Source of the DNA: Escherichia phage GeorgBuechner
Sequence record: MZ501070
Direction: 5' to 3' (one strand)
Length of the DNA stretch: 44,295 nucleotides
Numbering within the stretch: the first letter of the stretch is position 1; each line of letters opens with the position of its first letter. The notes under the pieces were generated by a model. That model saw only the letters and a program-made list of their open reading frames with translations, searched no databases and was not told the origin of the DNA. Below are positions 4,557-44,165 of the stretch, piece after piece. The position numbers and the translations under genes were made by a program.

Positions 4557-4857
4557 GTATGCAGCGATTGGGTTGGTAATAGGTCTGGCGGTTGGATTCT
4601 GGCAGGGTGACTCCTACCGCACTGGCGTTGAGGCGAGAGCGGCGCAAGAAGCGCAAGCGAAAGCCCAACGGCAGCAAACTAAGGTTGTCGAGGGGGCCGT
4701 GCAGGCAGAACAGGCCCGCGACGTGGAATACCGGACTATCACGAAAGAGGTTGTAAAATATGTTACGCGTCCTAACCGTCCTGATTGCCGTTTTGATGAT
4801 GAGCGCGTGCGGATCAAGCAACGTGCCATCGACGCCGCTAACCGAGTCGGTTTATAG
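4519..4857 (+). CDS. i-spanin (Rz-like) candidate; start could be ATG 4519 or GTG 4549
   Basis: N-terminal TM segment IKYAAIGLVIGLAVGFW followed by Q/A/E-rich predicted coiled coil and C-terminal Cys; contains an embedded +1-frame lipoprotein ORF. Confidence 0.55.
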   Translation: MRSLKTGGYGVIKYAAIGLVIGLAVGFWQGDSYRTGVEARAAQEAQAKAQRQQTKVVEGAVQAEQARDVEYRTITKEVVKYVTRPNRPDCRFDDERVRIKQRAIDAANRVGL

Positions 4858-4990
4858 ACCTCCTTGCACCTTTGAGAATGCCTCGGCGGACCCAGACGAA
4901 GACTTGCTGGTTGATATTAAAAATATGGAGTGTGGTGCGAAGCTGAGGGCGCAAGTGCTGGATTTGCAGAAAATAATTCGGGGGCCGTGA
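4760..4990 (+). CDS. o-spanin (Rz1-like outer membrane lipoprotein) candidate, starts inside the i-spanin ORF in the +1 frame
   Basis: Signal peptide MLRVLTVLIAVLMMSAC with lipobox-like MSAC; +2 residue Gly; short Pro-containing mature part with Cys; stop lies in a terminator hairpin. Confidence 0.55.
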   Translation: MLRVLTVLIAVLMMSACGSSNVPSTPLTESVYRPPCTFENASADPDEDLLVDIKNMECGAKLRAQVLDLQKIIRGP

Positions 4991-5768: not shown

Positions 5769-5790
5769 TTTTGTGTCCTCGTTGTTGGTG

Positions 5791-5813
5791 TGCAACCAAT
5801 ATATGCAACCAAT
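5791..5813. promoter_or_regulatory. Tandem pair of TGCAACCAAT motifs in divergent intergenic region
   Basis: TGCAACCAAT at 5791-5800 and 5804-5813; on the minus strand reads ATTGGTTGCA x2 directly upstream of the SD of gene 5004..5768. Confidence 0.5.
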
Positions 5814-5916: not shown

Positions 5917-6621
5917 ATGAAACTTACTAAAGCAGAATATGACGCGTTGCCGGAAGGTATGAAGGCGCTTTTTGTTGCCGATGGCGACGGGTATAAATCA
6001 ACGTTCATGACCGCAGAAGAAGTACAGGCGGAGATCAAGGGTCTGAAAGACAACAACGCGAAGCTGGTGAGCGAGAAGAAAGCAGAAGCTGAACGCCGCG
6101 CCGAAGCAGAGCGCCTTGCGAAAGAGAAAGAGGAAGCCGCCGCGCGCAAAAATGGCGACCTCGAAGCGATCGATAAGTCCTGGAAAGATAAGTTTGCGAA
6201 ACACGAAGCAGACACATCGGGAAAAATCGAAGCCTACCGCAAGCAGATCCACGATCTCACCATCGGCAGCGCTGCCAAAGACCTGGCATCGAAGCTGTTC
6301 GGTAAGAATGCGGGAATCATGCAACGTCACGTTATGGACCGCCTCACTCTGGAGGACGGCGAAGACGGCAGCTTGAAAGTGCGTGTATTGCAGGATGGCA
6401 AACCATCCGCGCTGACTATGGAAGAGCTTGAAAAAGAGTTCCGTAATAACGCCGATTTTGCATCCGTCCTGGCTGGCACGCCAGCCGGTGGCGCGCCTAG
6501 CAAACCGACGCAGGTTGTCGAAGATGTGAAGTCGAAAATCACTATGGGCCACAGCTTCGGTATCACTGACCTTACGAAACAGGCAGGTGAAATCATCGCG
6601 AAGATGGGCGACGACGAGTAA
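5917..6621 (+). CDS. Head scaffolding protein (putative)
   Basis: 234 aa, strongly charged and coiled-coil-like (AEAERRAEAERLAKEKEEAAARK), directly upstream of major capsid gene; SD AGGGGGA before ATG 5917; an in-frame upstream ATG at 5803 lies inside the motif and is not preferred. Confidence 0.6.
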   Translation: MKLTKAEYDALPEGMKALFVADGDGYKSTFMTAEEVQAEIKGLKDNNAKLVSEKKAEAERRAEAERLAKEKEEAAARKNGDLEAIDKSWKDKFAKHEADTSGKIEAYRKQIHDLTIGSAAKDLASKLFGKNAGIMQRHVMDRLTLEDGEDGSLKVRVLQDGKPSALTMEELEKEFRNNADFASVLAGTPAGGAPSKPTQVVEDVKSKITMGHSFGITDLTKQAGEIIAKMGDDE

Positions 6622-10688: not shown

Positions 10689-10703
10689 TTGGAGAATACT
10701 ACA

Positions 10704-11066
10704 ATGGCTAAAGCACCACTCTTCACACTTGACCCTAAGCCAACCTTTAAGCTGCCGATTGAGATCCCGCGCCCTGGCGAGAACGAACCGGGCAAGATGA
10801 CGTTTACCGTCCGCCACCGCCCGATCGACGAATTTTCGCAAACCATGCAGGAAACTGAACGAAAGCTATCGGAATATGACGACAATGACCCGGACGGCTT
10901 TAACGTTATGGTCGAGGCCATCATGCACGTCGCAGAAGGCTGGAATCTGCCGGACGAATTTAACGCGGAGAACGTCCGCCGCCTGGTGGTCAACTATCCA
11001 CGCGCGTTCGGTGTGTTCCACACGTCGTACTATCTCGAACTGATGGGGTTGCGTGAAAAAAACTAA
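10704..11066 (+). CDS. Tail assembly chaperone (gpG-like), zero-frame product
   Basis: 120 aa from ATG 10704 with SD GGAG; acidic; ends at TAA 11064-11066 just after an A AAA AAC slippery heptamer. Confidence 0.7.
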   Translation: MAKAPLFTLDPKPTFKLPIEIPRPGENEPGKMTFTVRHRPIDEFSQTMQETERKLSEYDDNDPDGFNVMVEAIMHVAEGWNLPDEFNAENVRRLVVNYPRAFGVFHTSYYLELMGLREKN

Positions 11067-11383
11067 TTGAGGCGGCGCGACGCTTTTATGGCCCGCCGCC
11101 ACCCTCCGAAGATTTAGCCGCAAGTTTATGGGGTGCGGCCCCCGAAGATGTTTGTCCGCCTGTTGCGCTGTGGCCTGACAACGCGAAGGTAGTCGCAGTC
11201 TTCACAGATTGCTCCACGCAATGGCGCACCGGATTTGGTGGCGCATACGGCATAGACTACGGCGTGCTGGAGTGGCTATTTAAGATGCACGGTATCGAAA
11301 ACGAGCAGCGTGCGTTTAGAGATATCAAGCTAATGGAGCGAATCGCGCTTGATGAAATGGCGCAGCAGAACCCCGCACAATGA
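10704..11383 (+). CDS. Tail assembly chaperone frameshift product (gpGT-like), -1 programmed ribosomal frameshift at 11057-11063
   Basis: -1 frame is open from the slippery site A_AAA_AAC to TGA 11381-11383 (about 107 further codons, KKLIEAARRFYGPPPPSEDL...); conserved arrangement upstream of tape measure genes. Confidence 0.6.
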
Positions 11384-11384
11384 A

Positions 11385-11418
11385 GCGGGACAAAACGGGA
11401 CGTCCCGTTTTGTCCCGC
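11385..11418. repeat. 34 bp perfect palindrome GCGGGACAAAACGGGAC|GTCCCGTTTTGTCCCGC
   Basis: Read directly from sequence; an imperfect second copy lies at about 11462-11498; each is followed by a TGCATACCTAYTCA...TGCATAAACT segment. Confidence 0.8.
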
Positions 11419-11527
11419 ACCTGCAAAACTGCATACCTACTCACTCCCATTGCATAAACTCAAAACGGGACAAGCGGGACGTCCCGTTTTGTCCCGCCCT
11501 GTAAATGTGCATACCTATTCAGATTTC

Positions 11528-11702
11528 GTGCATAAACTAGGCGGGACAAAAAGCGGGACAGACAAGGGGCGGGACAAAGCGGGACAGCACCCCGTCCCCG
11601 CCAGTGCTGCCGCGGGTTTCAGCCGATCGGGACAAGCGGGACAAACCCCAGTCTTTCAGACTAGACGGGGGTCAACGGCCCCCCTCGTCTGAGACTGAAT
11701 AA
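11528..11702. repeat. Copy A of a duplicated ~175 bp non-coding element: GCGGGACA iterons plus terminal imperfect hairpin
   Basis: GCGGGACA boxes at irregular 10-16 bp spacing, then CCCAGTCTTTCAGACTAGACGGGGGTCAACGGCCCCCCTCGTCTGAGACTGAATAA; near-identical to 38938..39112. Confidence 0.8.
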
Positions 11703-11765
11703 GATTCGTTTTAAAATCGCTGATACAATGTCAATCGGCAACTGCATAAAAAAGGGGACTGCATA

Positions 11766-14408
11766 ATGGCAGATCAAGCAGCAGGCATCACGCTAAAGGT
11801 CGATGCCTCACAAGTCAGAACGGCTAATACAGCGCTGGACTCGTTCGCACAGAAGTCAGAGACTACGGAATGGAAAGCTAAAAAATTAAACGACACACTC
11901 GGCAACACGAAAAAGGTGACGGGTGATGCAGCAGGTGGGATGGGGAAGTTAGCGAACGAATCGCAACGCGCCGCCGATGGCATGACGAAACAGGAGCGAC
12001 TCGCCAACCGGTTGGGCATGTCGACCAAAAACCTGGGCTTTGCCTCGCGTAACGCCGCATTCCAGTTACAGGATATCGCGGTTACGCTTGAGATGGGGAT
12101 GCCGGTGCACCGCGTCATGCTTCAGCAGCTACCGCAGCTTACCGGCGCATTCGGCGGCCTGGGTAACACGCTGCGTTATGTTGTCGGGTCCGTCGGCCCG
12201 CTAGGACTCGGCATTGCTGCCTTGACGGCAACGCTAGGCGTAGGGGTGGCTATTACGTCCCGCGCAGAGAACCAGGTCGCAGCGCTTAACAAGACGCTTG
12301 CGCTGTCGGGTAACATTTCCGGCCTCACTGCAAACCAGATCCTGGTGCTATCCGAGAACGCCGAGCGCATGGGCGGGTCGTTCCGTAAGACGCGTGACAC
12401 AATCCAGGCACTGGCGGCGGCGGGTGTGAAAGCGGGTGCTGACTTCGGCGCGCTGGCGAAGGTTGTGAATGACTTCGCGAAGGCGTCTAATCAGCCGATC
12501 GCGGACGTGGTTGAATCCATCTCTAAATTGTCAAACGACCCAGTGGGCGGACTGCGTGCGCTGGCGGATAAGTATCATGTCGTAACCGAAGCGCAGATCC
12601 AGCAGGTGCAATCGCTTGTAAATATGGGGCGTGAAACGGACGCGGTTGCTCTGGCTAACAAAACCGCCGCGGCGTCGTTCGCCAGCATGACCAACGATGT
12701 AAAGGCCAACATGGGTACGCTTGAGCGGTCGATGAACGTCGTTACATCAGCAGCTAAATCTATGTGGGACGCCATCCTGGATGTGGGCCGCGCGCAGTCC
12801 TCGAATGAGTCCGAGATGAAAGCGCGTGAGTCCTTGCAGCGCATGACCACGGCTTACTATGCCGAGATGAGAGCGGTAAACGCTGCCGGTGGGGTGATGA
12901 CCGAAGCGCAGAAAGCGCGTATTAACATGCTTTACAGCGAACTGGTCGCACAGGAAAAGGTGGTGGCGTCGCTCACCCTGCGCAACCGTGCCGAGCGAGA
13001 CAACGCAAGTGCCGCGGACGAAGCAGCAAAGGCGAACGAGGAGGCCAACCGCACCGCCCGCGACCGCGCCGCGTTTGAGAAGGAGTACGCAACAAACGCG
13101 AAGAGGCGTGCCGACGAGATCGCCCGCCTCAATTTGCTGAATAAGCGCGGTGTTATTAACGAGAAAGAACTAGCCGAGGCGGTGAAGCAGGTCAACGAGC
13201 GCTACAAAGACCCCGCACCAAAAAAGGCGGCGGCAGTTCGAGTAGATGCCGGGCTGAAAATGCTGGAGGTCGCGCGAAGCGAACTGGCACAGCTTCGAGA
13301 ATCAGGCAAGCAGATCGAAGCCAACGCGTCGACGCAGACCCGAGCGCAACGCGCTCAATCAGCACTTAACAAGCTGATCGCAGATCATGAACAGTTAATC
13401 GCAGCAAGCAAAGAAAGAGCGCTAACGGCAGCGGAAAAGCAGCAAATTGCGGGTTTCGAGGCGGTTAAATCGGTACGCGAGCAGATCGTCGAAGAAGCCA
13501 AATTGCTGGACGAGAAAGAGAAGCAGATCAAGGCACATGCCCAGGTCGAGGCCTTCATCAAGAACCAGAACGCCGAGCTAAAAGCCACCGCGGCGGGCTA
13601 TGCGCTTTCTACTCGCGAAGCGGCTAACCTGCGCGAAGAATTGCAGCTAATTGACCGCCTTCAGCGTGTCGGTGCTAACGATACCGATATCGACAAGGCG
13701 GTGTCTAAGCTGCGTGAAGTTCAGGACGCACAGACCGGCGCTAACGCCTCGTTATGGGATGGATTCAGTCGCGGGCTTAAGGATAGCGTGGATGAAATGG
13801 GTAACGGATATACGCAGATGGCGTCTCTCACGAAATTCACATTCAGCGCTATGCAGGACACGATGAACGAGTTTTTCGAGACTGGCAAGCTGAACGCAAA
13901 GGATATGGTTAAGTCCATCCTGAGCGAATTAATCAAGCTGGCTACCTCGCAGGCGTTCAAGTCCATCGTTAGCGCTTTCGGTGGTGACGGCGGCAAAAAC
14001 GGATTGTTCGGCGCTATCTTCTCTGGCCTTACTAAGAATGCGGACGGCGGAGCGTACGCAGGAGGCAATCTCGCGGCCTATTCGGGGAAAGTGGTAAGCC
14101 AGCCTACCTTTTTCAGTTATGGCGTCCAGGCGTTCGCTAAGGGCGCAGGATTGATGGGTGAGGCCGGACCTGAAGCCATCATGCCACTGAAGCGCGGCCC
14201 GGACGGCAAACTTGGAGTTGCCGCTGCCGGAGGTGTCGGGGGAATGATTGTAACGACCAACGTTAACATGGGGACCGGTAAGACGGATACCAGTGTTAGC
14301 GGACCAGACCCGCGCACCGCTCAGGCGTTCGGAAAGCAAATCACCGAGTCGGTGAAGGCCGAGATCGTGAAGGCGACGAAACCGGGTGGTGTACTTTACA
14401 AACGATGA
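11766..14408 (+). CDS. Tail tape measure protein
   Basis: 880 aa, Ala/Gln/Glu-rich helical repeats, glycine-rich C-terminal region; SD AAGGGGA; followed by tail-tip genes. Confidence 0.9.
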   Translation: MADQAAGITLKVDASQVRTANTALDSFAQKSETTEWKAKKLNDTLGNTKKVTGDAAGGMGKLANESQRAADGMTKQERLANRLGMSTKNLGFASRNAAFQLQDIAVTLEMGMPVHRVMLQQLPQLTGAFGGLGNTLRYVVGSVGPLGLGIAALTATLGVGVAITSRAENQVAALNKTLALSGNISGLTANQILVLSENAERMGGSFRKTRDTIQALAAAGVKAGADFGALAKVVNDFAKASNQPIADVVESISKLSNDPVGGLRALADKYHVVTEAQIQQVQSLVNMGRETDAVALANKTAAASFASMTNDVKANMGTLERSMNVVTSAAKSMWDAILDVGRAQSSNESEMKARESLQRMTTAYYAEMRAVNAAGGVMTEAQKARINMLYSELVAQEKVVASLTLRNRAERDNASAADEAAKANEEANRTARDRAAFEKEYATNAKRRADEIARLNLLNKRGVINEKELAEAVKQVNERYKDPAPKKAAAVRVDAGLKMLEVARSELAQLRESGKQIEANASTQTRAQRAQSALNKLIADHEQLIAASKERALTAAEKQQIAGFEAVKSVREQIVEEAKLLDEKEKQIKAHAQVEAFIKNQNAELKATAAGYALSTREAANLREELQLIDRLQRVGANDTDIDKAVSKLREVQDAQTGANASLWDGFSRGLKDSVDEMGNGYTQMASLTKFTFSAMQDTMNEFFETGKLNAKDMVKSILSELIKLATSQAFKSIVSAFGGDGGKNGLFGAIFSGLTKNADGGAYAGGNLAAYSGKVVSQPTFFSYGVQAFAKGAGLMGEAGPEAIMPLKRGPDGKLGVAAAGGVGGMIVTTNVNMGTGKTDTSVSGPDPRTAQAFGKQITESVKAEIVKATKPGGVLYKR

Positions 14409-21878: not shown

Positions 21879-21906
21879 GTATTACACCGCTCAATCAAGA
21901 ATGCAA
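21879..21906 (-). promoter_or_regulatory. Candidate sigma70-type promoter for the lipoprotein gene
   Basis: Minus strand reads TTGCAT - 16 nt - TAATAC about 30 nt upstream of the ATG; the -35 overlaps an ATTGGTTGCA motif. Confidence 0.35.
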
Positions 21907-21911
21907 CCAAT
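21902..21911. promoter_or_regulatory. TGCAACCAAT motif immediately upstream of the tail fibre SD
   Basis: aTGCAACCAATttACGAGGAtttagctATG; motif 17 nt from the fibre start codon. Confidence 0.5.
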
Positions 21912-21927
21912 TTACGAGGATTTAGCT

Positions 21928-23730
21928 ATGGCAGCGGGTACGCTCTCCGTAACGAACAATAGCAAGGCGGTAGTAGGGGTTGGCACAACGTTTACCGCGT
22001 TCAAGGCTGGCGACTTCTTATCACTGGTGGTGGGGCAAGTGCCTTATACAGTGGCGATCGCGTCCATTGAAAGCGCAACCGCTCTCACGCTAGTGTTGCC
22101 GTTCGATGGCCCTACGGCAACCGGACTTGCCTGGGATGGTATTAATCGCGATACCATGTCACTGGCAACGATGGGCGTTACCGTACAGGCGCAAAAAGCA
22201 TTGCGCTTGATGATTGCAGATGAAAACAACTGGCGTGCAATCTTCGGCGACGCTGAAGAAATCACAGTGACGTTACCTAACGGGCAAGTCATGCAGGGTA
22301 TGTCATGGGGATACCTGTCGGAATTGCTTAAGAACGTAGATCCGGTTGAGATGCGCGACCTCGCAGCGCAAGCCGAAGCATCGAAATCGGCAGCGCAAGG
22401 ATTTCGTAATGAGGCCGAAGGCTTCAAGAACGATACCAATACAATCAAGACGCAGACCAACCAGATTAAGGCGGATACGCAGGCTATCCACGACGCCACC
22501 AATACCATCAAGACGCAGACCAACCAGATTAAGACGGATACGCAGGCCATCAAAGACCAGACGAACCAGATCAAGACTGACACTGGCGTTATGAGGGACG
22601 AGGCCAACACCGCGAAGGCGGACGCGCAAGCTGCCAGCACTGCCGCACAGGAATTCCGCGACCAGGCAGAGGAGTGGGCGCAAAGCGTTAACGCGGATAA
22701 CCTGCTAACCAAATCCGGCAACCTGGCAGGACTTGCGGATAAAACTGAGTCGTGGGCAAACCTTATGCCTGCAGGCCCGCTACGAGTCGGCGGTGACCCC
22801 AATGCGGATCTGGATGCGGCAACTAAGCGTTGGACGTTGGGTTTATTAGACGCAGGCACGGCGAATACGTCGTGGTCGGTAATCAACGGCGACGCCACTA
22901 AACCGCCAGCGGGCACTACGGCAGACGGCGGAAGCATTATATCTGAATATCGTGTAGGTACTTCTGTACATTCGGAAGCAAAGCTGCGCGTCCGTGCGAC
23001 TATCGGCGGTGAGACTTACGCCCGCTTGGCGATCACCAACCTGGAGACGGCGCAGAGTTCGGGCATCGACTTTAACACCAAAGGCGAGATGACCTTGCCG
23101 GGCAAGTTTACGGTGAACAGTCCAGGGTCAGATGTCGTCGGCAGCTTGTCCTTAAGCCGCGGGTCTTACCTGCAATTTGCATTCGAACCGTACTACACCG
23201 TAGCCGAAACCGTGCCGAACGACGTTGTAGGCGGTAGGACGTTCTTCGAACCGGCACTAGTCAAGAGCGGCACTCGATATTTTCGCCTGTTTATGCGACG
23301 TAAGGATGGGAACCGTACCGGCGAAATTATGCTTAACTTCCCGACTACCGTATCGGGGACTATCGCGCTGCAAGGCACATCCGGCCGCGAGTATAAGAAA
23401 GATATTGCCGATGCGGACGCAAGCGAAGCTATGGACCGCATTAACAGCCAGCGCCTTGTTAACTTCGTGTATAAGGATGATGAGCAGGCCCGCCAGCGCT
23501 TCGGTATTATCGCCGAAGAAGCGGAGTTAATTGCGCCGCAGTACGTTAAACACCACGAGTTCCCGATCGAGGATATTCTCGACGAAGACGGCAACAAGAT
23601 CGGGGAGAAGATGACGGACCGCCCATCCATCGACGTTAACCCGATCGTAATGGACTTGATGGGATGTGTTCAATATCTCAATAAGCAGGTGGAGGATTTG
23701 AAGGCCGAGATCGCGGCGTTGAAGAAATAA
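21928..23730 (+). CDS. Tail fibre protein with C-terminal S74-type intramolecular chaperone domain
   Basis: 600 aa from ATG 21928 (track ORF starts at 21901 inside the motif); internal 63 bp tandem repeat encoding NTIKTQTNQIK...; C-terminal GTSGREYKKDIADADASEAMDRINSQRLVNFVYKDD resembles fibre chaperone domains. Confidence 0.8.
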   Translation: MAAGTLSVTNNSKAVVGVGTTFTAFKAGDFLSLVVGQVPYTVAIASIESATALTLVLPFDGPTATGLAWDGINRDTMSLATMGVTVQAQKALRLMIADENNWRAIFGDAEEITVTLPNGQVMQGMSWGYLSELLKNVDPVEMRDLAAQAEASKSAAQGFRNEAEGFKNDTNTIKTQTNQIKADTQAIHDATNTIKTQTNQIKTDTQAIKDQTNQIKTDTGVMRDEANTAKADAQAASTAAQEFRDQAEEWAQSVNADNLLTKSGNLAGLADKTESWANLMPAGPLRVGGDPNADLDAATKRWTLGLLDAGTANTSWSVINGDATKPPAGTTADGGSIISEYRVGTSVHSEAKLRVRATIGGETYARLAITNLETAQSSGIDFNTKGEMTLPGKFTVNSPGSDVVGSLSLSRGSYLQFAFEPYYTVAETVPNDVVGGRTFFEPALVKSGTRYFRLFMRRKDGNRTGEIMLNFPTTVSGTIALQGTSGREYKKDIADADASEAMDRINSQRLVNFVYKDDEQARQRFGIIAEEAELIAPQYVKHHEFPIEDILDEDGNKIGEKMTDRPSIDVNPIVMDLMGCVQYLNKQVEDLKAEIAALKK

Positions 23731-24950: not shown

Positions 24951-24988
24951 TTGCAACCAACCTATTGGTTGCAAGTGAATTTTGCAAC
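24951..24988. promoter_or_regulatory. Inverted-repeat motif TTGCAACCAA-ccta-TTGGTTGCAA followed by conserved TTGCAAGTGAATTTTGCAAC element
   Basis: Perfect 10 bp arms; the downstream 20-mer matches 5821-5840 (TTGCAAGCGAATTTTGCGAT) at 17/20; on the minus strand TTGCAA-18 nt-TATAGT could act as a promoter for gene 24376..24897. Confidence 0.45.
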
Positions 24989-26530: not shown

Positions 26531-26557
26531 TGCAACCAATCTAATTATGCAACCAAT
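26531..26557. promoter_or_regulatory. Tandem pair of TGCAACCAAT motifs between minus-strand genes
   Basis: TGCAACCAAT at 26531-26540 and 26548-26557; on the minus strand followed by an imperfect hairpin plus T-run and the SD of gene 26234..26476. Confidence 0.5.
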
Positions 26558-32284: not shown

Positions 32285-33019
32285 TTAACGGCGGCGACGT
32301 TTACGTGGTGCTTCGTCTTCGTCGTCGTCCTCATCTTCATCATCGCGTGGTTTACGACGTTTGCGAGGTTTTTCATCTTCCTCATCGTCGTCATCATCGC
32401 GGCGCTTGGACTTTTTGGACTTGCGCGGTTTGTCGTCTTCGTCTTCGTCATCGTTGTCCAGGTCTTCGTCGGAACATGAAGACCCGCCACCTCCGAAGGC
32501 TTCGCCGTCTTCACGGAATCGCAGACCCAGCAAACCCGCCCCGAGTCCCTTGCCGTTGGTATTGTTCCACGCCCAAATATCAAGGGACACGTTGCAATAA
32601 CAACCGGAGTAGATCTCCTGGCCTTCAATCTCGTCGCCGTCGATGGTCAGACCCTGTTCAGTCTGCTTCTCGCCTAGTGACGTTTGAATGATTGGCTGTT
32701 TGAACGATTTGGCGTTGATATACAACATGCCTTCGAATTCTTCGGTTACTTCATCGCGCTCGTCGCCATCGCGAACCGCACATTCCTTAGAATCCTGGGC
32801 GTAGTGGCGGTCCATCCACTTATCGGCATTCTTCTCGGATTTCAGCTTGTCGGTGAGCACTGCGCGCGCTGCCGCTTCCACTTTGTCCACCTGCGGATCT
32901 TCTTTATCGAGAAGAATCACGGCACGGTATGCCGGTTTTTGTCCATCCTGTTTAGGGGTATCACGTTCCCAGATTTTCAGGAAGCATACGCGCACATTTT
33001 TCAGGTTGACTTTAGCCAT
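32285..33019 (-). CDS. ssDNA-binding protein-like (gp2.5 / DUF2815-like) with repetitive charged C-terminal tail
   Basis: 244 aa from ATG 33017-33019 (MAKVNLKNVRVCF...) with SD GAGGAA; C-terminal ~60 aa are three acidic-block/basic-block repeats ending RKRRRR. Confidence 0.5.
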   Translation of the reverse strand: MAKVNLKNVRVCFLKIWERDTPKQDGQKPAYRAVILLDKEDPQVDKVEAAARAVLTDKLKSEKNADKWMDRHYAQDSKECAVRDGDERDEVTEEFEGMLYINAKSFKQPIIQTSLGEKQTEQGLTIDGDEIEGQEIYSGCYCNVSLDIWAWNNTNGKGLGAGLLGLRFREDGEAFGGGGSSCSDEDLDNDDEDEDDKPRKSKKSKRRDDDDDEEDEKPRKRRKPRDDEDEDDDEDEAPRKRRRR

Positions 33020-33076
33020 TTTCCAATTCCTCATTTTCACATGTATCGGGGTTATTGGAAGCCACCCCGTTCGGCT

Positions 33077-33100
33077 TGGTTGCCAATTTACTTGGTTGCG
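33077..33100. promoter_or_regulatory. Pair of TTGGTTGC motifs upstream of SSB-like gene
   Basis: TTGGTTGCC at 33077-33085 and TTGGTTGCG at 33092-33100. Confidence 0.45.
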
Positions 33101-35263: not shown

Positions 35264-35782
35264 TTAATCTTCCAGTTCGAAATAGGTTTCGACGATTTCT
35301 TTTAGCTCTGTGTGGAAGTCTTCGACGTCGTCATCTTCCAGCTTGGCGATTGATTTGATCTCGAACGATTCCAGCAGGTCGTCGAATTCGTCGTTCGCAT
35401 CGTCGTCATCACCACCGGCGATAATCGCGGCATACTGTTTGATTTCGTCGCGCATCTCCGCCAGCGGATCGGCATCTTTCTTACCTTTGCCTTTCGCCGG
35501 TGCTTTTTTGGCCTTAGCCGGTTTTTCGTCTTCGGCGTCTTCGTCGTCGTCATCTTCTACGACTTCTTTTTTGGCCTTACCCTTCGCCGGTGCTTTTTTA
35601 GCTTTAGCCGGTTTTTCGTCTTCGGCGTCATCGTCGCCATCTTCGACAACTTCTTTTTTGGCCTTAGACGGCTTCTTGTCTTCCTGCTTACCAACGGCAG
35701 CGCCAACGGTTTCATAATGCTTTGCAATGGTTTCCAGTGCTACTACGCCGCGAGTGATCAGGTTTACGATTTGCTCAAACAT
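35264..35782 (-). CDS. Acidic/lysine-rich repeat protein, first gene of the leftward early operon
   Basis: 172 aa from ATG 35780-35782 (MFEQIVNL...) with SD GGAG; two ~29 aa tandem repeats KKEVVEDxDDDAEDEKPAKAKKAPAKGK; the longer track ORF is rejected as a 5' leader. Confidence 0.55.
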   Translation of the reverse strand: MFEQIVNLITRGVVALETIAKHYETVGAAVGKQEDKKPSKAKKEVVEDGDDDAEDEKPAKAKKAPAKGKAKKEVVEDDDDEDAEDEKPAKAKKAPAKGKGKKDADPLAEMRDEIKQYAAIIAGGDDDDANDEFDDLLESFEIKSIAKLEDDDVEDFHTELKEIVETYFELED

Positions 35783-35978
35783 GGTATATCTCCGATTGGT
35801 TAAGTTTAGGTGTCGGCAGTTAACTTCGTCGGTGGCCTTAACATATTGCCAGGTTACGCGTTCTCCCGTTCGGGTAGTGGACCTGGTTATATAATCACGG
35901 TTGGGAATCCTGACACTTCGATCCGGCCCCTGCGTTGCCCCTCTCCAGTTTGCGTCCTGCATCCTGTCGACGGGGTGA

Positions 35979-36185: not shown

Positions 36186-36515
36186 ATGAATGTAAACGAC
36201 GCAATCGAAATGTTAACGAAGACTGTTTGCAGTGAGACAAGCCGGTCATGGGCATATACCGATGCCGTGGGGGCGGTGTTATTTGAAATCGAACGACTGC
36301 GGCTTACCGAAAAAGAATTGCGCGCGAAGCTGGAATTACTCAACGGTACGGCAGCCAGCAAGCTGCAAAAGCACAATGAAGAAATGGAAGAATACAAAAA
36401 ACAGGTTATCCGTTTGCGCGAGGAGGGAAAGTCATGGGCGATGATCGCTGAGCTAACCGGAATTAATCAGAGCACCGTGCGCTCATGGGTACGCAATAAT
36501 AAAACTTCTAAGTAA
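36186..36515 (+). CDS. Putative transcriptional regulator with C-terminal helix-turn-helix
   Basis: 109 aa; C-terminal KSWAMIAELTGINQSTVRSWVRN is HTH-like; central coiled-coil-like segment; first gene of rightward operon. Confidence 0.5.
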   Translation: MNVNDAIEMLTKTVCSETSRSWAYTDAVGAVLFEIERLRLTEKELRAKLELLNGTAASKLQKHNEEMEEYKKQVIRLREEGKSWAMIAELTGINQSTVRSWVRNNKTSK

Positions 36516-36525
36516 GGCAACGGCA

Positions 36526-38790
36526 ATGAGCTTAATTAAATTTGCGGTAACACGACCCGCTAAAAAAGGCGAAAAAGCCAGGGCGGAAAACTTCCAGATG
36601 ACAACCGATGAGTTTTTCGAATTTATCAATGATGCGAAAGAAATCTCCTCGGTGCATATCAACAAGACGGAAGATAAAGCCGAGTATGCGCGCCGCAAGC
36701 GTAAGGCCGATGGGATTGTGGCTTATACTCGTGACGGCTTACGTCGCAAGACCAGTGCGGTGGACCGCTCGATCCTGTTCTTCGATATAGACCGTACCGA
36801 CACCCGCACCTTACGCCGCTGCCGTAAGGCGTTCATCGACGCGGGGCTGGAACACGTATTTCACACCACTACCGGCGACCGCCACCCGCTGAAAGGCGGC
36901 ACGCGTTGCGCCCGTTTCCTGGTGCTCACCGATAGGCCTGTACCTGCTGAAGACCTGGGCCGCGTCCAGTATGCACTATTACACCAACTGGGCCTGTCAG
37001 ATGTGGACTTCGATGATTGTACGAAAGACACAAACCGCCTTATGTACCTGCCTCACCAGCAATCGGTTGTCAAGTGTCACTACGGCAAACGTGCCCGCGT
37101 CCGTCGTCTGCTTCGCCTGGCGGATAAGCTGGGAGTGGAAAAAGAGGAAGTACGACGCGAACTGACCCAGGGCGATGACGGCGTGGCGGACGGTATTCTG
37201 GATTGGTGCTTCCAGGCAGGATTCGAACCGCTGTCGTCCGGTCGTGGTTATGAAGTACCGTGCCCGAACGAACACCTGCACAGTGGTGAAGGGTCCACCG
37301 CAATCATGGTTAAGGATGGCGAGATCCGTTTCAAGTGTATGCACACCGGCAACGAGTGTTGCTCGGAACTGAACAGACACCAGCACCTGGCGCTACGTCT
37401 TATCGGGATCCCGGACCACCTGAACGTCGAACCGCACAACATGTCACGTAAGCAAATCGCCGCCATCCTCCCTGGACTGGACGACGAGGAAGTGGAATCG
37501 TGCTATGCGCATATCGTTGATGCGGTCGGAGACGGCGACGAGTACGGCGTATGTACCGACGCTGACCTGGATAACGAACCGGTCGCACTGTTCAGTAAGC
37601 ACGACCCGATCATAGAAGGCCTGGTCAACTTCAAATCGACCTGGTATATGGCTGGCGAATCGAACATCGGTAAATCGTTCTACGTGCTGGGGCAAATGGG
37701 TGCGGTTGCCGCGGGGATTCCGTTCGGCGGTGCGAAGGTCGTCCAGTCCCATTGCTTCTATTTCGACGCGGAAGGTGGCGAAGCCTCCAACCAGCGTAAG
37801 GAAGCATTGCAGATCAAATACGAGCACGACCTCGACAAGCTGCACATTATCGATCTGCAATCACGCGGCTGGGATATCACCAGCAAATCCGGCTTGCGTG
37901 AAGTTATCAGCTTCATCAACCGCACCGCTAACGGCGAACCGGTTGGCCTGGTGGCGTTCGACTCACTCAACCAGACGGTTGCGCTGCGGTCCGCCGATGC
38001 CAAACCGTTCGACGAGAACAACGCCAGCGATATGGGCGAAGTGGTCAAGGCGCTGAAGGCCATCGCGGAAAATACAGGCGGCAGTGCGGGCGTTATCCAC
38101 CACCCGGCGAAGGGTGCAAACGGCAGCAGATCTCCCCGTGGGTCCGGCGCGCTGCATGGCGCTGTCGATTCTGCGTTCTTCCTGGAGCAACCGGACGACA
38201 ATCAGCCGGGCCAATTGAACCTGTATCACGAAAAGGCACGTAACGGCATCAAGCAAGCGCCACGCGGATTCGTCCTGCTCAAGTGCAAGGTTAAGGTGGA
38301 TCTCCGCAAGTCCGAAGCGTTCGAGTCACACCAGTCCACCAGCACCGGGCCTGACTTCGGCGATGTGGTTGCCGGTTGGGACGTCAAGCCAATTGCATCC
38401 ACACCACGCGACGAGACTCTGTACCTCGTACCGGTCGCCCTGGCACCGTTCGCCATCGAACAGGCGAAGGCCGCGGGCAAAGCAGCAGTTAAGGAAGAGA
38501 ACGCAGCAGGACCGCGCAACGAAAAAGAGAAAGTGCTTTATGCGGCGCTGGAAAAACTGATGGAAGATAACCCGGACCATACCGGATTCAGCAAATCGGC
38601 AATTGTCCGCCAGGCTGGGCTTGCGAAAGGTGGCACATCGACGAAGGCAATTGACGATATGGTCGAGCGCGGAGTGCTAGGTTTTTATACCGATCCGCAC
38701 ACCGGGGCCATCTATGGGTCGTCGAATATCGTCATTAAAACGAATATACCAATCACGCTTTCTGCGACCGATGACGATTTAAAAGATTAA
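36526..38790 (+). CDS. DNA primase/helicase-like replication protein with P-loop ATPase domain
   Basis: 754 aa; Walker A GESNIGKS and Walker B-like VAFDSL in the central region; large N-terminal domain of primase type by position and size. Confidence 0.65.
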   Translation: MSLIKFAVTRPAKKGEKARAENFQMTTDEFFEFINDAKEISSVHINKTEDKAEYARRKRKADGIVAYTRDGLRRKTSAVDRSILFFDIDRTDTRTLRRCRKAFIDAGLEHVFHTTTGDRHPLKGGTRCARFLVLTDRPVPAEDLGRVQYALLHQLGLSDVDFDDCTKDTNRLMYLPHQQSVVKCHYGKRARVRRLLRLADKLGVEKEEVRRELTQGDDGVADGILDWCFQAGFEPLSSGRGYEVPCPNEHLHSGEGSTAIMVKDGEIRFKCMHTGNECCSELNRHQHLALRLIGIPDHLNVEPHNMSRKQIAAILPGLDDEEVESCYAHIVDAVGDGDEYGVCTDADLDNEPVALFSKHDPIIEGLVNFKSTWYMAGESNIGKSFYVLGQMGAVAAGIPFGGAKVVQSHCFYFDAEGGEASNQRKEALQIKYEHDLDKLHIIDLQSRGWDITSKSGLREVISFINRTANGEPVGLVAFDSLNQTVALRSADAKPFDENNASDMGEVVKALKAIAENTGGSAGVIHHPAKGANGSRSPRGSGALHGAVDSAFFLEQPDDNQPGQLNLYHEKARNGIKQAPRGFVLLKCKVKVDLRKSEAFESHQSTSTGPDFGDVVAGWDVKPIASTPRDETLYLVPVALAPFAIEQAKAAGKAAVKEENAAGPRNEKEKVLYAALEKLMEDNPDHTGFSKSAIVRQAGLAKGGTSTKAIDDMVERGVLGFYTDPHTGAIYGSSNIVIKTNIPITLSATDDDLKD

Positions 38791-38865
38791 ATGCTGCGCG
38801 CATTGGTTGCCGATATGGGGATTCCCATATCGCTAAAAGATTAAATCTTGCGCGCATTGGTTGCC
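38779..38865. repeat. 32 bp direct repeat x2 flanking a palindrome, overlapping the primase stop
   Basis: TAAAAGATTAAATGCTGCGCGCATTGGTTGCC and TAAAAGATTAAATCTTGCGCGCATTGGTTGCC (2 mismatches) with GATATGGGgattCCCATATC between them; a third ATTGGTTGCC at 38891-38900. Confidence 0.8.
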
Positions 38866-38937
38866 ATTTTGAGTGTTTTTAGCTGGTCGTATTGGTTGCC
38901 GTGTAGTGTAAATATAATGCATAGTTATGCAGTTTTA

Positions 38938-39112
38938 GTGCATAAAGTAAGCGGGACAAAAAGCGGGACAAACAAGGGGCGGGACAAAGCGGGACAGCAC
39001 CCCCGTCCCGCCCCGGATGGCGCGGCTTCCAGAGGAGCGGGACAGGCGGGACAAACCCCAGTCTTTCAGACTAGACGGGGGTCAATGGCCCCCCTCGTCT
39101 GAGACTGAATAA
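38938..39112. repeat. Copy B of the duplicated ~175 bp GCGGGACA-iteron plus hairpin element
   Basis: Near-identical to 11528..11702 with a diverged central ~40 bp; ends in the same imperfect hairpin. Confidence 0.8.
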
Positions 39113-39171
39113 AATCCGGGGATTGCAAAATACACGGCAGCATGATGCGAAGCGCTGTCGTTGGTGAACTA

Positions 39172-39303
39172 GGCAACCAATGCGAGTTGCATTATGCTGA
39201 GTGAAAATGCAGTTTGCAGCCACAGCAGATAGCGATCAACTTTTTCATACGCATGATTAATATTGGTTGCATTCAGCCTGGCACCCTGCTAGATTGGTTG
39301 CAC
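39172..39303. promoter_or_regulatory. Cluster of three GCAACCAAT / ATTGGTTGCA motifs upstream of gene 39326
   Basis: GGCAACCAAT 39172-39181, ATTGGTTGCA 39262-39271, ATTGGTTGCAC 39294-39303 followed by CACCAACGAGAGGA and ATG. Confidence 0.5.
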
Positions 39304-39325
39304 ACCAACGAGAGGACCAAACAAA

Positions 39326-39805
39326 ATGAAATTTCCAGTAACCATCAAAGACGGTAAATCAACTATCACCTTCACCAGCAACGACCAGGGCACCTATGAA
39401 AGCGGGGCGACTTGCATGTCTACCCTGGACGATGTGATGATTCGTGTTAATTCCGGTAAAGCCTCGATTGTTGACGACAACACTAAGAAGGACCGAACAA
39501 TGAGAGCACTAATCTGGAATTACTCACTGGCCCTGGCAAAGCTGAACGAAGCGAAGGCGCTGAACGGCAACGTAGACCGTGCGCGCCAGTTTGCGACACT
39601 GGCACACCAGTCAATCATGTGTGCGCTAGACGATATGGACGCCAGCATGGATGGCCTGGGTCCGCTGCGTAAGGCAATCCATGAATACGCGCTGGCATTC
39701 TCCCGTGAGCGCCTGGCTTATCGCTTCGGTATTGGCGAGACGGCAGTGACAAACGTCGCCCGGATTAAAGCCCAGCGCGAACTATTCGCCCAGCTTGCGA
39801 AATAA
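39326..39805 (+). CDS. Hypothetical protein
   Basis: 159 aa; SD GAGAGGA; upstream leader nearly identical to that of minus-strand gene 5004..5768. Confidence 0.5.
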   Translation: MKFPVTIKDGKSTITFTSNDQGTYESGATCMSTLDDVMIRVNSGKASIVDDNTKKDRTMRALIWNYSLALAKLNEAKALNGNVDRARQFATLAHQSIMCALDDMDASMDGLGPLRKAIHEYALAFSRERLAYRFGIGETAVTNVARIKAQRELFAQLAK

Positions 39806-43022: not shown

Positions 43023-44165
43023 ATGCACCCGCAAACTAAAATCACCGACGAGCAATTGATCGCTGAGCTGCAATCCGGCACTACCTCGAAAGATATTGCT
43101 AAGAAGTACGGTCTTTCCCTCCGAAATGTATACATGCGAAAAGCCCGCCTGTCGAAGAAAGGGATTGGTCACGGCAACGATGCCGTAATCCGTAAGCGCG
43201 TTGCCGATGGTTTTGGCGTTAAGCGTGTCTCAGCCCTGGTGCGCGGAAATGGCGAAGAGGTCATGTCGTGGGTTATCACTGAGCAGGACAAGGAGCGCCA
43301 GCTTGAAGCAATGCGCGCCGTTGTCGAGGGTATGAACAGCGAAATCACACCGGCAGCACCAGTAAGCGCCCCGCCAGTCCCGGTCCAGGCGCTCGACCTG
43401 CTCAACCTGTACACTGTGTCAGACTTCCACCTGGGCATGTTGGCCTGGGGCGAGGAGACTGGCGAAGACTGGGATATGGCGATTGCCGAAGACTTGTTCT
43501 ACCGCTGGTTTGTCGAAGCCTTCGCACGCGCACCGGACGCAGGCACTGCCGTTATCAATATCCTCGGAGATATGGCGCATTTTGATAGCCTCGATGCCGT
43601 CACTCCTGCCAGCGGTCACGTACTGGACGCAGACACCCGCTACCAGAAGCTGGTCCGCTACATGATTCGCATGGTGCGCAACGTGGTGGAACTGGCGCTG
43701 CAAAAGCACCACAAAGTCAAACTGCTAATCGTCCAGGGGAATCATGACGAGTCTGGCATGATTTGGCTGGCTGAAATGTTCAATACGCTGTATGAGAACG
43801 AGCCGCGCGTTGATGTGGACACGTCACCGGACGTATACAAAATGGTGCAGCACGGCAAGACCACGCTGTTCTTCCACCACGGGCACAAAGCGCGCTTCGA
43901 CGCTATTGAAACCGTCATGATTTCCAAATTCAGACAGGCTTTCGGGTCCAGCGAGTACAGCTACGCACACATAGGCCACTTGCACCACCAGAAGATTGTA
44001 GAATCCCGCAACATGATTGTTGAACAGCACAGGACGCTCGCAGCGAAAGACGCCTACGCCAGTCGTGGCGGTTGGATGTCCGGTCGCAGCGCCAACGTCA
44101 TTACCTACAGCGCCAACTACGGCGAAGTAGCGCGCTTAACCATTAGCCCGGAAATGTTGAAGTAA
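43023..44165 (+). CDS. HTH domain fused to calcineurin-like metallophosphoesterase
   Basis: 380 aa; N-terminal HTH-like TSKDIAKKYGLSLRNVYMRKARL; phosphoesterase motifs SDFHLG, GDMAHF, GNHDE, HHGH. Confidence 0.6.
   Translation: MHPQTKITDEQLIAELQSGTTSKDIAKKYGLSLRNVYMRKARLSKKGIGHGNDAVIRKRVADGFGVKRVSALVRGNGEEVMSWVITEQDKERQLEAMRAVVEGMNSEITPAAPVSAPPVPVQALDLLNLYTVSDFHLGMLAWGEETGEDWDMAIAEDLFYRWFVEAFARAPDAGTAVINILGDMAHFDSLDAVTPASGHVLDADTRYQKLVRYMIRMVRNVVELALQKHHKVKLLIVQGNHDESGMIWLAEMFNTLYENEPRVDVDTSPDVYKMVQHGKTTLFFHHGHKARFDAIETVMISKFRQAFGSSEYSYAHIGHLHHQKIVESRNMIVEQHRTLAAKDAYASRGGWMSGRSANVITYSANYGEVARLTISPEMLK

Follow-up and report, generated by a model that had tools for sequence, protein, structure and literature searches.

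What is the function of the repeat-rich non-coding gap that separates the tail assembly chaperone gene from the tape measure gene in Escherichia phage GeorgBuechner (MZ501070)? The stretch analyzed here (the window; 44,295 bp) is a complete Dhillonvirus genome (SO-1/HK578-like virulent coliphage), opened at terS. In it, the chaperone gene with its downstream extension (10689 to 11383, plus strand; Phage_TAC_4 at 10689 to 11066; gp15 and gp16 of Sodalis phage SO-1) and the tape measure gene (11766 to 14408, plus strand) flank a block of palindromes and short repeats, here called region A. A preliminary description, made from the letters alone, had seen this block as a multimeric protein-binding array serving as an origin, a late-operon control site, or a packaging-related site. 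It gave the gap as 320 bp; the gap is present, and since the chaperone frame stops at 11383 and the tape measure ATG lies at 11766, it measures 382 bp. Here, we report the anatomy, conservation, and genomic associations of region A, which is probably an iteron array of the origin type that the genome carries twice, the second copy (region B) lying behind the helicase-primase gene.

Region A begins one base past the chaperone stop codon with a perfect 34-bp palindrome (P1, 11385 to 11418, plus strand; GCGGGACAAAACGGGAC|GTCCCGTTTTGTCCCGC), as previously described, containing four CGGGAC boxes in the order forward, forward, reverse, reverse. As a DNA hairpin, P1 reaches −20 kcal/mol (z = −8.8; 0 of 200 shuffles equal it); it is conserved in SO-1 and degenerate in phage LM40P1, where the boxes are retained. 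The reported imperfect copy (P2, 11466 to 11499, plus strand) lies 81 bp downstream, is 96% complementary to P1 over 26 nt, and forms a second forward, forward, reverse, reverse box unit. A pair of TGCATA/TGCATAA motifs comes after each box cluster (plus strand); the first pair (11430 to 11435 and 11451 to 11457) is between P1 and P2, and the second (11508 to 11535) is also the start of a 201-nt repeat common with region B. TGCATAA was found 14 times in the window (5.1 expected), with five of its seven plus-strand copies in regions A and B. Four direct GCGGGACA boxes follow (11541, 11553, 11569, and 11579, the set spanning 11541 to 11586; plus strand) at the spacings of 12, 16, and 10 bp that had been noticed as a 10- to 16-bp series, with a further copy at 11636. 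Next come a degenerate inverted box (11594 to 11601), a box doublet (TCGGGACA A GCGGGACA; 11627 to 11643, plus strand), and, abutting the doublet, the long imperfect hairpin, which was confirmed as a bulged 49-nt structure with a G-run/C-run top (CAGTCTTTCAGACTAGACGGGGG-loop-CCCCCCTCGTCTGAGACTG; 11649 to 11697, plus strand; −15 kcal/mol, z = −2.5). An AT-rich spacer present at site A only (11698 to 11765, plus strand) carries TGCATAA boxes at 11743 and 11760 and the tape measure ribosome-binding site.

The boxes are strongly concentrated at these sites. GCGGGACA occurs 16 times in the window (2.1 expected; none of 100 shuffles reached 16), 14 of these within the two regions, and about 360 bp hold 21 of the 32 window copies of the 6-mer CGGGAC (14 within a 258-bp part of region A, the other 7 in region B). 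These CGGGAC boxes occur in both orientations, 9 to 16 bp (about one helical turn) apart; multiple short boxes clustered at such spacing are what an iteron-type origin displays. On the minus strand, the TGCATAA boxes beside the iterons (11506 to 11535 and 38937 to 38945) read TTATGCAC, which matches the DnaA box TTATNCACA at 8 of 9 positions. One-mismatch DnaA boxes number 29 in the window (26 expected), and because they are not enriched, we keep these matches only as a lead; their placement adjoining the iterons resembles that in iteron plasmids. Two other candidate identities were dropped, namely a resemblance by eye of 11594 to 11620 to the E. coli type I-E CRISPR repeat (too weak) and a CsrA sponge built on GGA motifs (because most boxes would be buried in perfect stems).

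The distal part of region A recurs after the helicase-primase gene, as reported, over 201 nt rather than 175 (11508 to 11708 versus 38918 to 39118, plus strand; 88% identity). Region B begins 128 bp past the helicase-primase stop codon and carries direct boxes at 38951, 38963, 38979, 38989, 39037, and 39046, an inverted box at 39005 to 39010, and the hairpin at 39059 to 39107. Regions A and B lie 11 kb and 5 kb from terS, respectively, and both are co-oriented with transcription, the plus-strand genes running from ~36.2 kb through the window end to ~23.7 kb, with minus-strand genes in between. An assembly duplication, which would have undone the earlier account, is excluded because 157 GenBank phage records contain both copies in matching positions; these records match window positions 11000 to 12200 at 80 to 93% identity and are nearly all Escherichia or Shigella Dhillonviruses. 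When 29 distinct copies were aligned, the central 30 nt fell into A-type and B-type versions that follow the site, so the duplication is old.

The feature is thus real and strongly conserved, and as an observation it is not new, having been flagged in a 2009 GenBank record. That record (Sodalis phage SO-1, GQ502199) already annotates both loci (89% identity) as repeat_region features named "region A" and "region B," with a description of direct, inverted, and palindromic repeats that are similar between the two; the annotation has the form of a "possible ..." note and carries neither evidence nor mechanism. Phage WFI labels the palindrome as a putative terminator. Several GenBank records (Maverick, CHD5UKE2, BEK2-2, PNS1, Kente, and Sponge) start or end inside region A, and the two ends of the Maverick record (LR990702) overlap by 127 nt within the repeat. 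We rejected the idea that physical genome ends lie here, a 127-nt end overlap being a typical assembler k-mer overlap; the 201-nt repeat instead accounts for the breaks that several published Dhillonvirus assemblies show here.

Constraint falls on the motifs. In a set of 27 distinct copies from sites A and B, column identity was 0.96 in the boxes, 0.99 in the hairpin stems, 0.81 in the hairpin loop, 0.96 in the TGCATA motifs (the second pair included), and 0.79 in the rest, the box and stem figures being inflated by the retrieval of some loci through exact box or hairpin pattern matches. In LM40P1, the most divergent genome and one fetched independently, box positions and orientations are kept and the spacers have changed. 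This conservation of boxes beside drifting spacers, with boxes in both orientations at helical-turn spacing, supports, in general terms, the proposal of a multimeric protein-binding array. Among 30 distinct hairpin variants, the stems (bulges included) are almost invariant and the loop varies; no compensatory changes were seen, and several single-sided changes break or weaken pairs. The invariant stems say little either way on a conserved RNA structure, and there is no full explanation for why the bulged stem hardly varies. Taken over its full length, region A is less conserved than the genes on either side. Small open reading frames annotated in the gap in some records (e.g., PaulFeyerabend) were rejected as coding because copies differ by 1-nt indels.

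The link to replication comes from unrelated phages. IMG/VR was scanned for CGGGACA-N(2-5)-CGGGACA, a doublet expected to occur in isolation by chance in a collection of that size. At least 120 loci (G+C content, 35% to 71%) were retrieved, of which 44 were classed as array loci (5 or more boxes per 400 bp; 5 to 24 boxes) and 72 held fewer boxes. When all window proteins were compared with open reading frames near the arrays, the helicase-primase, via its AAA_25 core, was the sole consistent match; a profile of that core found a helicase homologue at 16 of 44 array loci versus none of the 72 loci with fewer boxes. The helicase stop codon lay within about 225 bp of the array edge in 15 of these 16, with the array trailing from the 3′ end of the gene and, in several of the 15 contigs, overlapping it. 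All six array-adjacent helicases tested on Pfam were AAA_25 proteins with differing N termini (Toprim plus zinc ribbon, Prim-Pol, or none), and 11 of all the array-adjacent helicases have a common C-terminal motif, W..FY...(K/R)KAF.RA...L...G.I. At five further loci, the array lies inside a gene assigned by PHROGs to replication initiation (O-like or DnaD-like), and at two it abuts D5/VapE-type primases. Replication-initiator genes of three kinds are therefore repeatedly associated with CGGGACA boxes. Read along the helicase strand, the layout is direct boxes, a box doublet, a G/C-run palindrome (such as CACCCCTATAGGGGTG or C9-TAAA-G9), and then inverted boxes; the Dhillonvirus distal unit has this same layout, and the order of doublet then palindrome is found in unrelated phages as well. 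The box sequence, searched as a word in the literature, was in no paper, and the cross-phage module of CGGGACA boxes and G/C palindrome beside replication genes appears to be new and undescribed. Very large CGGGAC arrays were also observed in unrelated viral contigs (L040 at 6124 to 6365, L095 at 4563 to 4858 and about 5967 to 6016, and arrays of about 340 bp in L062 and L065), one such contig having 24 boxes in 240 bp with a 22-bp period and another 43 boxes in two clusters 1.2 kb apart; no recognizable helicase was found near the arrays of L040 and L095.

Closer relatives indicate which of the two Dhillonvirus sites is the older. A metagenomic relative (L155), whose helicase is 68% identical to that of the window, carries CGGGACA boxes in an array like region B, together with the same long hairpin, in which one G-to-TC change breaks a pair without compensation. 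Cornellvirus VSiP (L154; Salmonella virus, NC_069153), with a helicase 44% identical overall, has the same layout with a G-run/C-run hairpin directly past the helicase stop (37144 to 37290) and uses a different box, GGGGGAGA, of which 6 of 12 genome copies fall within 140 bp; a TGAATAGTTATGCA motif is common to this array and region B. Nothing comparable was found between the chaperone and tape measure genes of VSiP. Because relatives show post-helicase arrays and VSiP lacks a copy in the tail operon, comparison of these genomes suggests that region B is the ancestral site and that only Dhillonvirus gained region A, for which the earlier word "insert" was fair. The C-terminal 94 residues of the VSiP helicase are 29% identical to those of the window protein, versus 66% in the core. 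This one comparison (Cornellvirus, GGGGGAGA, 29%) supports a joint change of box and initiator C terminus; unrelated initiators, however, share CGGGACA with no detectable similarity among their winged helices.

The helicase-primase (754 amino acids; 36526 to 38790, plus strand) is the leading candidate for the box binder. AAA_25 is its sole Pfam domain (RepA-like core, residues about 357 to 574), and its best PDB sequence match, a weak one, is RSF1010 RepA. An AlphaFold model of residues 561 to 754 (37 homologues) predicts a C-terminal winged helix at residues about 661 to 740 (nucleotides about 38506 to 38745, plus strand), with pLDDT of 80 to 92 and a helix-helix-helix-strand-wing-strand topology. 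The top 50 Foldseek matches in the PDB are all winged-helix DNA binders (weak E values of 0.05 to 0.3; probability of about 0.9 to 0.99 for the strongest); the origin-binding domain of phage P4 was not among the listed matches. A protein search with the C-terminal 189 amino acids alone returned nothing, the full-length query having found homologues, and profile-profile comparison (hhalign) of the winged-helix regions of the three initiator classes gave no significant similarity. The replication genes of the window encode the AAA_25 helicase-primase, DUF2800, an Enc34-type single-stranded DNA-binding protein, and PolA, and none of the replication proteins scanned matched any O-like or DnaD-like initiator family. 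On the basis of this model, the most likely binder of the boxes is the predicted winged helix at the helicase-primase C terminus.

Together, these comparisons favor the first of the three functions proposed for region A. Because the boxes adjoin or enter replication-initiator genes in unrelated phages, and region B follows a helicase-primase with a predicted winged helix, an origin is the preferred option over late-operon control and packaging. Adjacency to an initiator gene was seen for region B (128 bp) and for 22 unrelated array loci; region A itself is in the tail operon, 25 kb from the helicase-primase gene. The mechanism that we propose is as follows. The CGGGAC(A) boxes would bind the phage replication initiator, most likely through the predicted winged helix of the helicase-primase. 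With boxes paired at roughly one helical turn and six direct boxes in each distal unit, several subunits of a ring helicase could line up beside the G/C-rich palindrome or hairpin, and loading or priming would start there. The primary origin would be region B, which occupies the ancestral position of the module immediately behind the helicase-primase gene. Region A would be a late-operon duplicate, enlarged by the two forward, forward, reverse, reverse palindromes and thus holding twice as many boxes. By analogy with oriR of Bacillus phage SPP1 and crr of P4, it may act as a second origin, as a distant enhancer looping to region B, or as an initiator-bound fork barrier. If the first forks stalled at such a barrier, replication could change over to concatemer production, as headful packaging requires.

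Several points weigh against this account. No classical AT-rich unwinding element lies between the iterons; the flanks are only modestly AT-rich (11500 to 11540 and 11698 to 11765), and the element between the boxes is a G/C-rich hairpin. GC skew, which had been suggested as a check, follows gene orientation, with extremes at about 23.7 kb and 36 kb and no inflection at either region, and is uninformative about both. Among relatives, one with 46% helicase identity has other repeats in its 645-bp post-helicase gap, and the Kagunavirus and Jerseyvirus relatives checked have no post-helicase array. The binder could instead be the 109-amino-acid helix-turn-helix (HTH) protein encoded just upstream of the helicase-primase gene (36186 to 36515, plus strand; Pfam HTH_23 and Sigma70_r4_2), a small HTH gene being present at the equivalent position in the relatives L155 and L156. 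Why unrelated initiators use one 7-mer box is not explained. The inflation of box and stem identities given above counts on the same side, as does the location of both copies on the transcribed strand, through which an RNA role may be possible.

A bolder extension is that the arrays represent an undescribed, widespread origin module common to at least three initiator classes (AAA_25 helicases with a C-terminal winged helix, O-like/DnaD-like initiators, and D5/VapE-type primases), with the Dhillonvirus tail copy a fork barrier or second origin that times the concatemer switch. We hold this only tentatively and consider it rather doubtful. If it were true, the use of one box across unrelated initiator classes would point to a portable DNA-recognition specificity or a common unknown partner.

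Of the other explanations, transcriptional control of the late operon survives best, and we consider it unlikely. The palindromes would be terminators or attenuators lowering read-through from the chaperone gene into the tape measure and distal tail genes, and the boxes and TGCATA motifs would bind a regulator or form a late promoter. Such a role suits a site between two late genes with strong hairpins, a palindrome that the WFI annotation calls a putative terminator, and TGCATA(A) boxes that are enriched and conserved; region B too precedes a gene block, and a related motif, GTGAATAGTTCAC, overlaps a promoter in Kagunavirus. However, the pairing of a G/C-rich hairpin with a U-tract on the transcribed strand, which marks an intrinsic terminator, was not found. 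No T-run follows any hairpin on the plus strand; a terminator scan flagged the minus strand only, with counts at chance, and sigma-70 promoters were not above chance in a scan. The boxes beside or inside replication genes of unrelated phages would also be left unexplained. Transcriptional control, weakened by the absent T-run and the chance-level scans, could nonetheless coexist with an origin role.

A structured RNA made from both copies is less probable still. It might be a cis-acting antitermination RNA like put of phage HK022, a hairpin for RNase III processing or for stabilization, or a small regulatory or decoy RNA. HK022 likewise has two put copies. The position of both regions on the transcribed strand, the almost invariant bulged hairpin with its variable loop, and fold energies that beat those of shuffles would suit such an RNA. 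Rfam 15, however, gave no matches at gathering thresholds over the whole window (a permissive search returned weak microRNA models far below gathering scores), and the 30 hairpin variants carry pair-breaking single-sided changes and no compensatory ones. In other phages, moreover, the boxes stand in both orientations around a palindrome, which fits recognition of double-stranded DNA, and in an RNA, P1 and P2 would bury the boxes in a perfect stem.

The packaging option, a pac or cos site recognized by the small terminase, draws on the likeness of the repeated boxes to the terminase-binding arrays of some phages and on the GenBank records that start or end in region A. It is disfavored because Dhillonvirus (SO-1-like) assemblies circularize, headful packaging is the PhageTerm prediction for one member (PMC9022532), region A lies 11 kb from terS, and the element occurs twice rather than at a single site; in addition, the boxes associate with helicase genes and not terminase genes, and the record breaks are assembly artifacts, as the Maverick overlap indicates. 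A selfish or neutral repeat (MITE-like or a homing remnant) without phage function, or an assembly duplication, would account for two copies of 88% identity in one genome and is equally remote, given that both are fixed at the same two positions in all 157 records with site-specific differences, that motif-specific conservation implies purifying selection, and that no terminal inverted repeats or target-site duplications were found. A packaging site and an artifact are both effectively excluded.

A second motif was observed in the window. TTGGTTGC(A/C) occurs 20 times (2.1 expected), mostly in apparently intergenic positions and often paired or palindromic (TTGCAACCAA...TTGGTTGCA), with sites at 5792 to 5812, 24953 to 24972, 26532 to 26556, 33076 to 33099, 35987, 38803 to 38899, 39173 to 39301, 42828, and elsewhere; region B is flanked by six of them. 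A promoter can be fitted to one pair (TTGCAT, 17 nt, TAGATT), the second box covering the start site, and the motif is probably a phage promoter or operator element, relatives having their own versions (TGTTGGCAGCA in L156 and TGTTGGCTG in VSiP). Near-identical leaders (TTGGTTGCACACCAAC..GAGGAC..AAAATG) precede two different genes at 5770 to 5812 (minus strand) and 39290 to 39330 (plus strand) and look like a duplicated promoter-leader cassette. In two Kagunaviruses (L158 and L159), GTGAATAGTTCAC lies downstream of the helicase gene and overlaps a TTGACA...TATTAT promoter beside a DicA-like repressor gene in divergent orientation. A similar motif, TG(A/C)ATAGTTATGCA, lies upstream of the iterons in Dhillonvirus and Cornellvirus, and this likeness suggests that it is an operator.

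Elsewhere in the window, a 380-amino-acid protein (43023 to 44165) gave weak metallophosphatase-domain matches and a faint N-terminal LuxR/GerE-type HTH, its SO-1 counterpart being labeled "putative transcriptional regulator." Minus-strand genes at 32307 to 32464 and 35318 to 35683 contain repetitive acidic/basic coding repeats with runs of GTCTTCGTCGTC-type codons, and a 90-nt tandem duplication (35470 to 35649) lies inside a 232-amino-acid protein encoded at 35264 to 35962. A 63-nt coding repeat is present three times (89% and 60% identity; 22430 to 22597) in a gene for 609 amino acids (21901 to 23730); the SO-1 annotation calls its counterpart a putative tail fiber. No tRNA or transfer-messenger RNA genes were found in the window.

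Replication origins have yet to be mapped in Dhillonvirus and in most of the virulent coliphages that now serve as model collections and therapy candidates. If the origin reading is true, regions A and B provide a concrete pair of origins to test and a candidate domain for origin binding, in phages easily engineered on E. coli K-12, as well as a Gram-negative counterpart to the SPP1 oriL/oriR model of the switch from circle-to-circle to concatemer replication in headful phages. The signature of CGGGACA boxes with a G/C palindrome by replication genes could serve as an origin marker in metagenomic phage contigs.

The closest known arrangement is that of SPP1, in which oriL lies in initiator gene 38, oriR interrupts the conserved late-gene order, and gp38 binds both (PMC6316719). 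Fork collision with gp38 at oriR has been proposed to trigger the theta-to-sigma switch to concatemer synthesis (PMC6316719). Dhillonvirus likewise has two distant regions of similar organization, the first at the initiator gene and the second in among the late genes, and both phages are siphoviruses of about 44 kb with headful packaging (predicted for a Dhillonvirus). The components differ. SPP1 has a separate initiator (gp38), loader (gp39), and DnaB-type helicase (gp40), and because the window has no homology to this module, it is an analogue of SPP1 and not a member of its system. The candidate binder in Dhillonvirus is a domain of the AAA_25 helicase-primase, and its binding is proposed here, whereas that of gp38 has been demonstrated. 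SPP1 origins have an AT-rich unwinding element, whereas the center of the Dhillonvirus arrays is a G/C-rich palindrome or hairpin.

Satellite phage P4 has octamer iterons in two regions kilobases apart, ori and crr, and its alpha protein unites primase and helicase in one polypeptide with a C-terminal winged-helix domain that binds the iterons. Dhillonvirus likewise has repeats in two distant regions, and a C-terminal winged helix is predicted for its helicase-primase. P4 alpha, however, is an SF3/D5-type helicase and the window protein has an AAA_25/RepA-like core, the P4 box is TGTTCACC rather than GCGGGACA, and P4 is without a long bulged hairpin.

The lambda origin lies inside gene O. With it and the iteron plasmids (P1, F, RK2, and pSC101), the Dhillonvirus regions share short direct repeats at helical-turn spacing that would be recognized by an initiator, and the CGGGACA arrays inside O-like/DnaD-like initiator genes in the five unrelated phage contigs recall lambda itself. 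By contrast, the boxes are 7 to 8 bp long rather than 17 to 22 bp, many copies are inverted, a G/C palindrome stands in place of the AT-rich region, and the Dhillonvirus array is outside the gene and duplicated. On these analogies, regions A and B are best read as two copies of an iteron-type origin, for which SPP1 and P4 offer precedents; the arrangement would then be of a known kind and not a new system.

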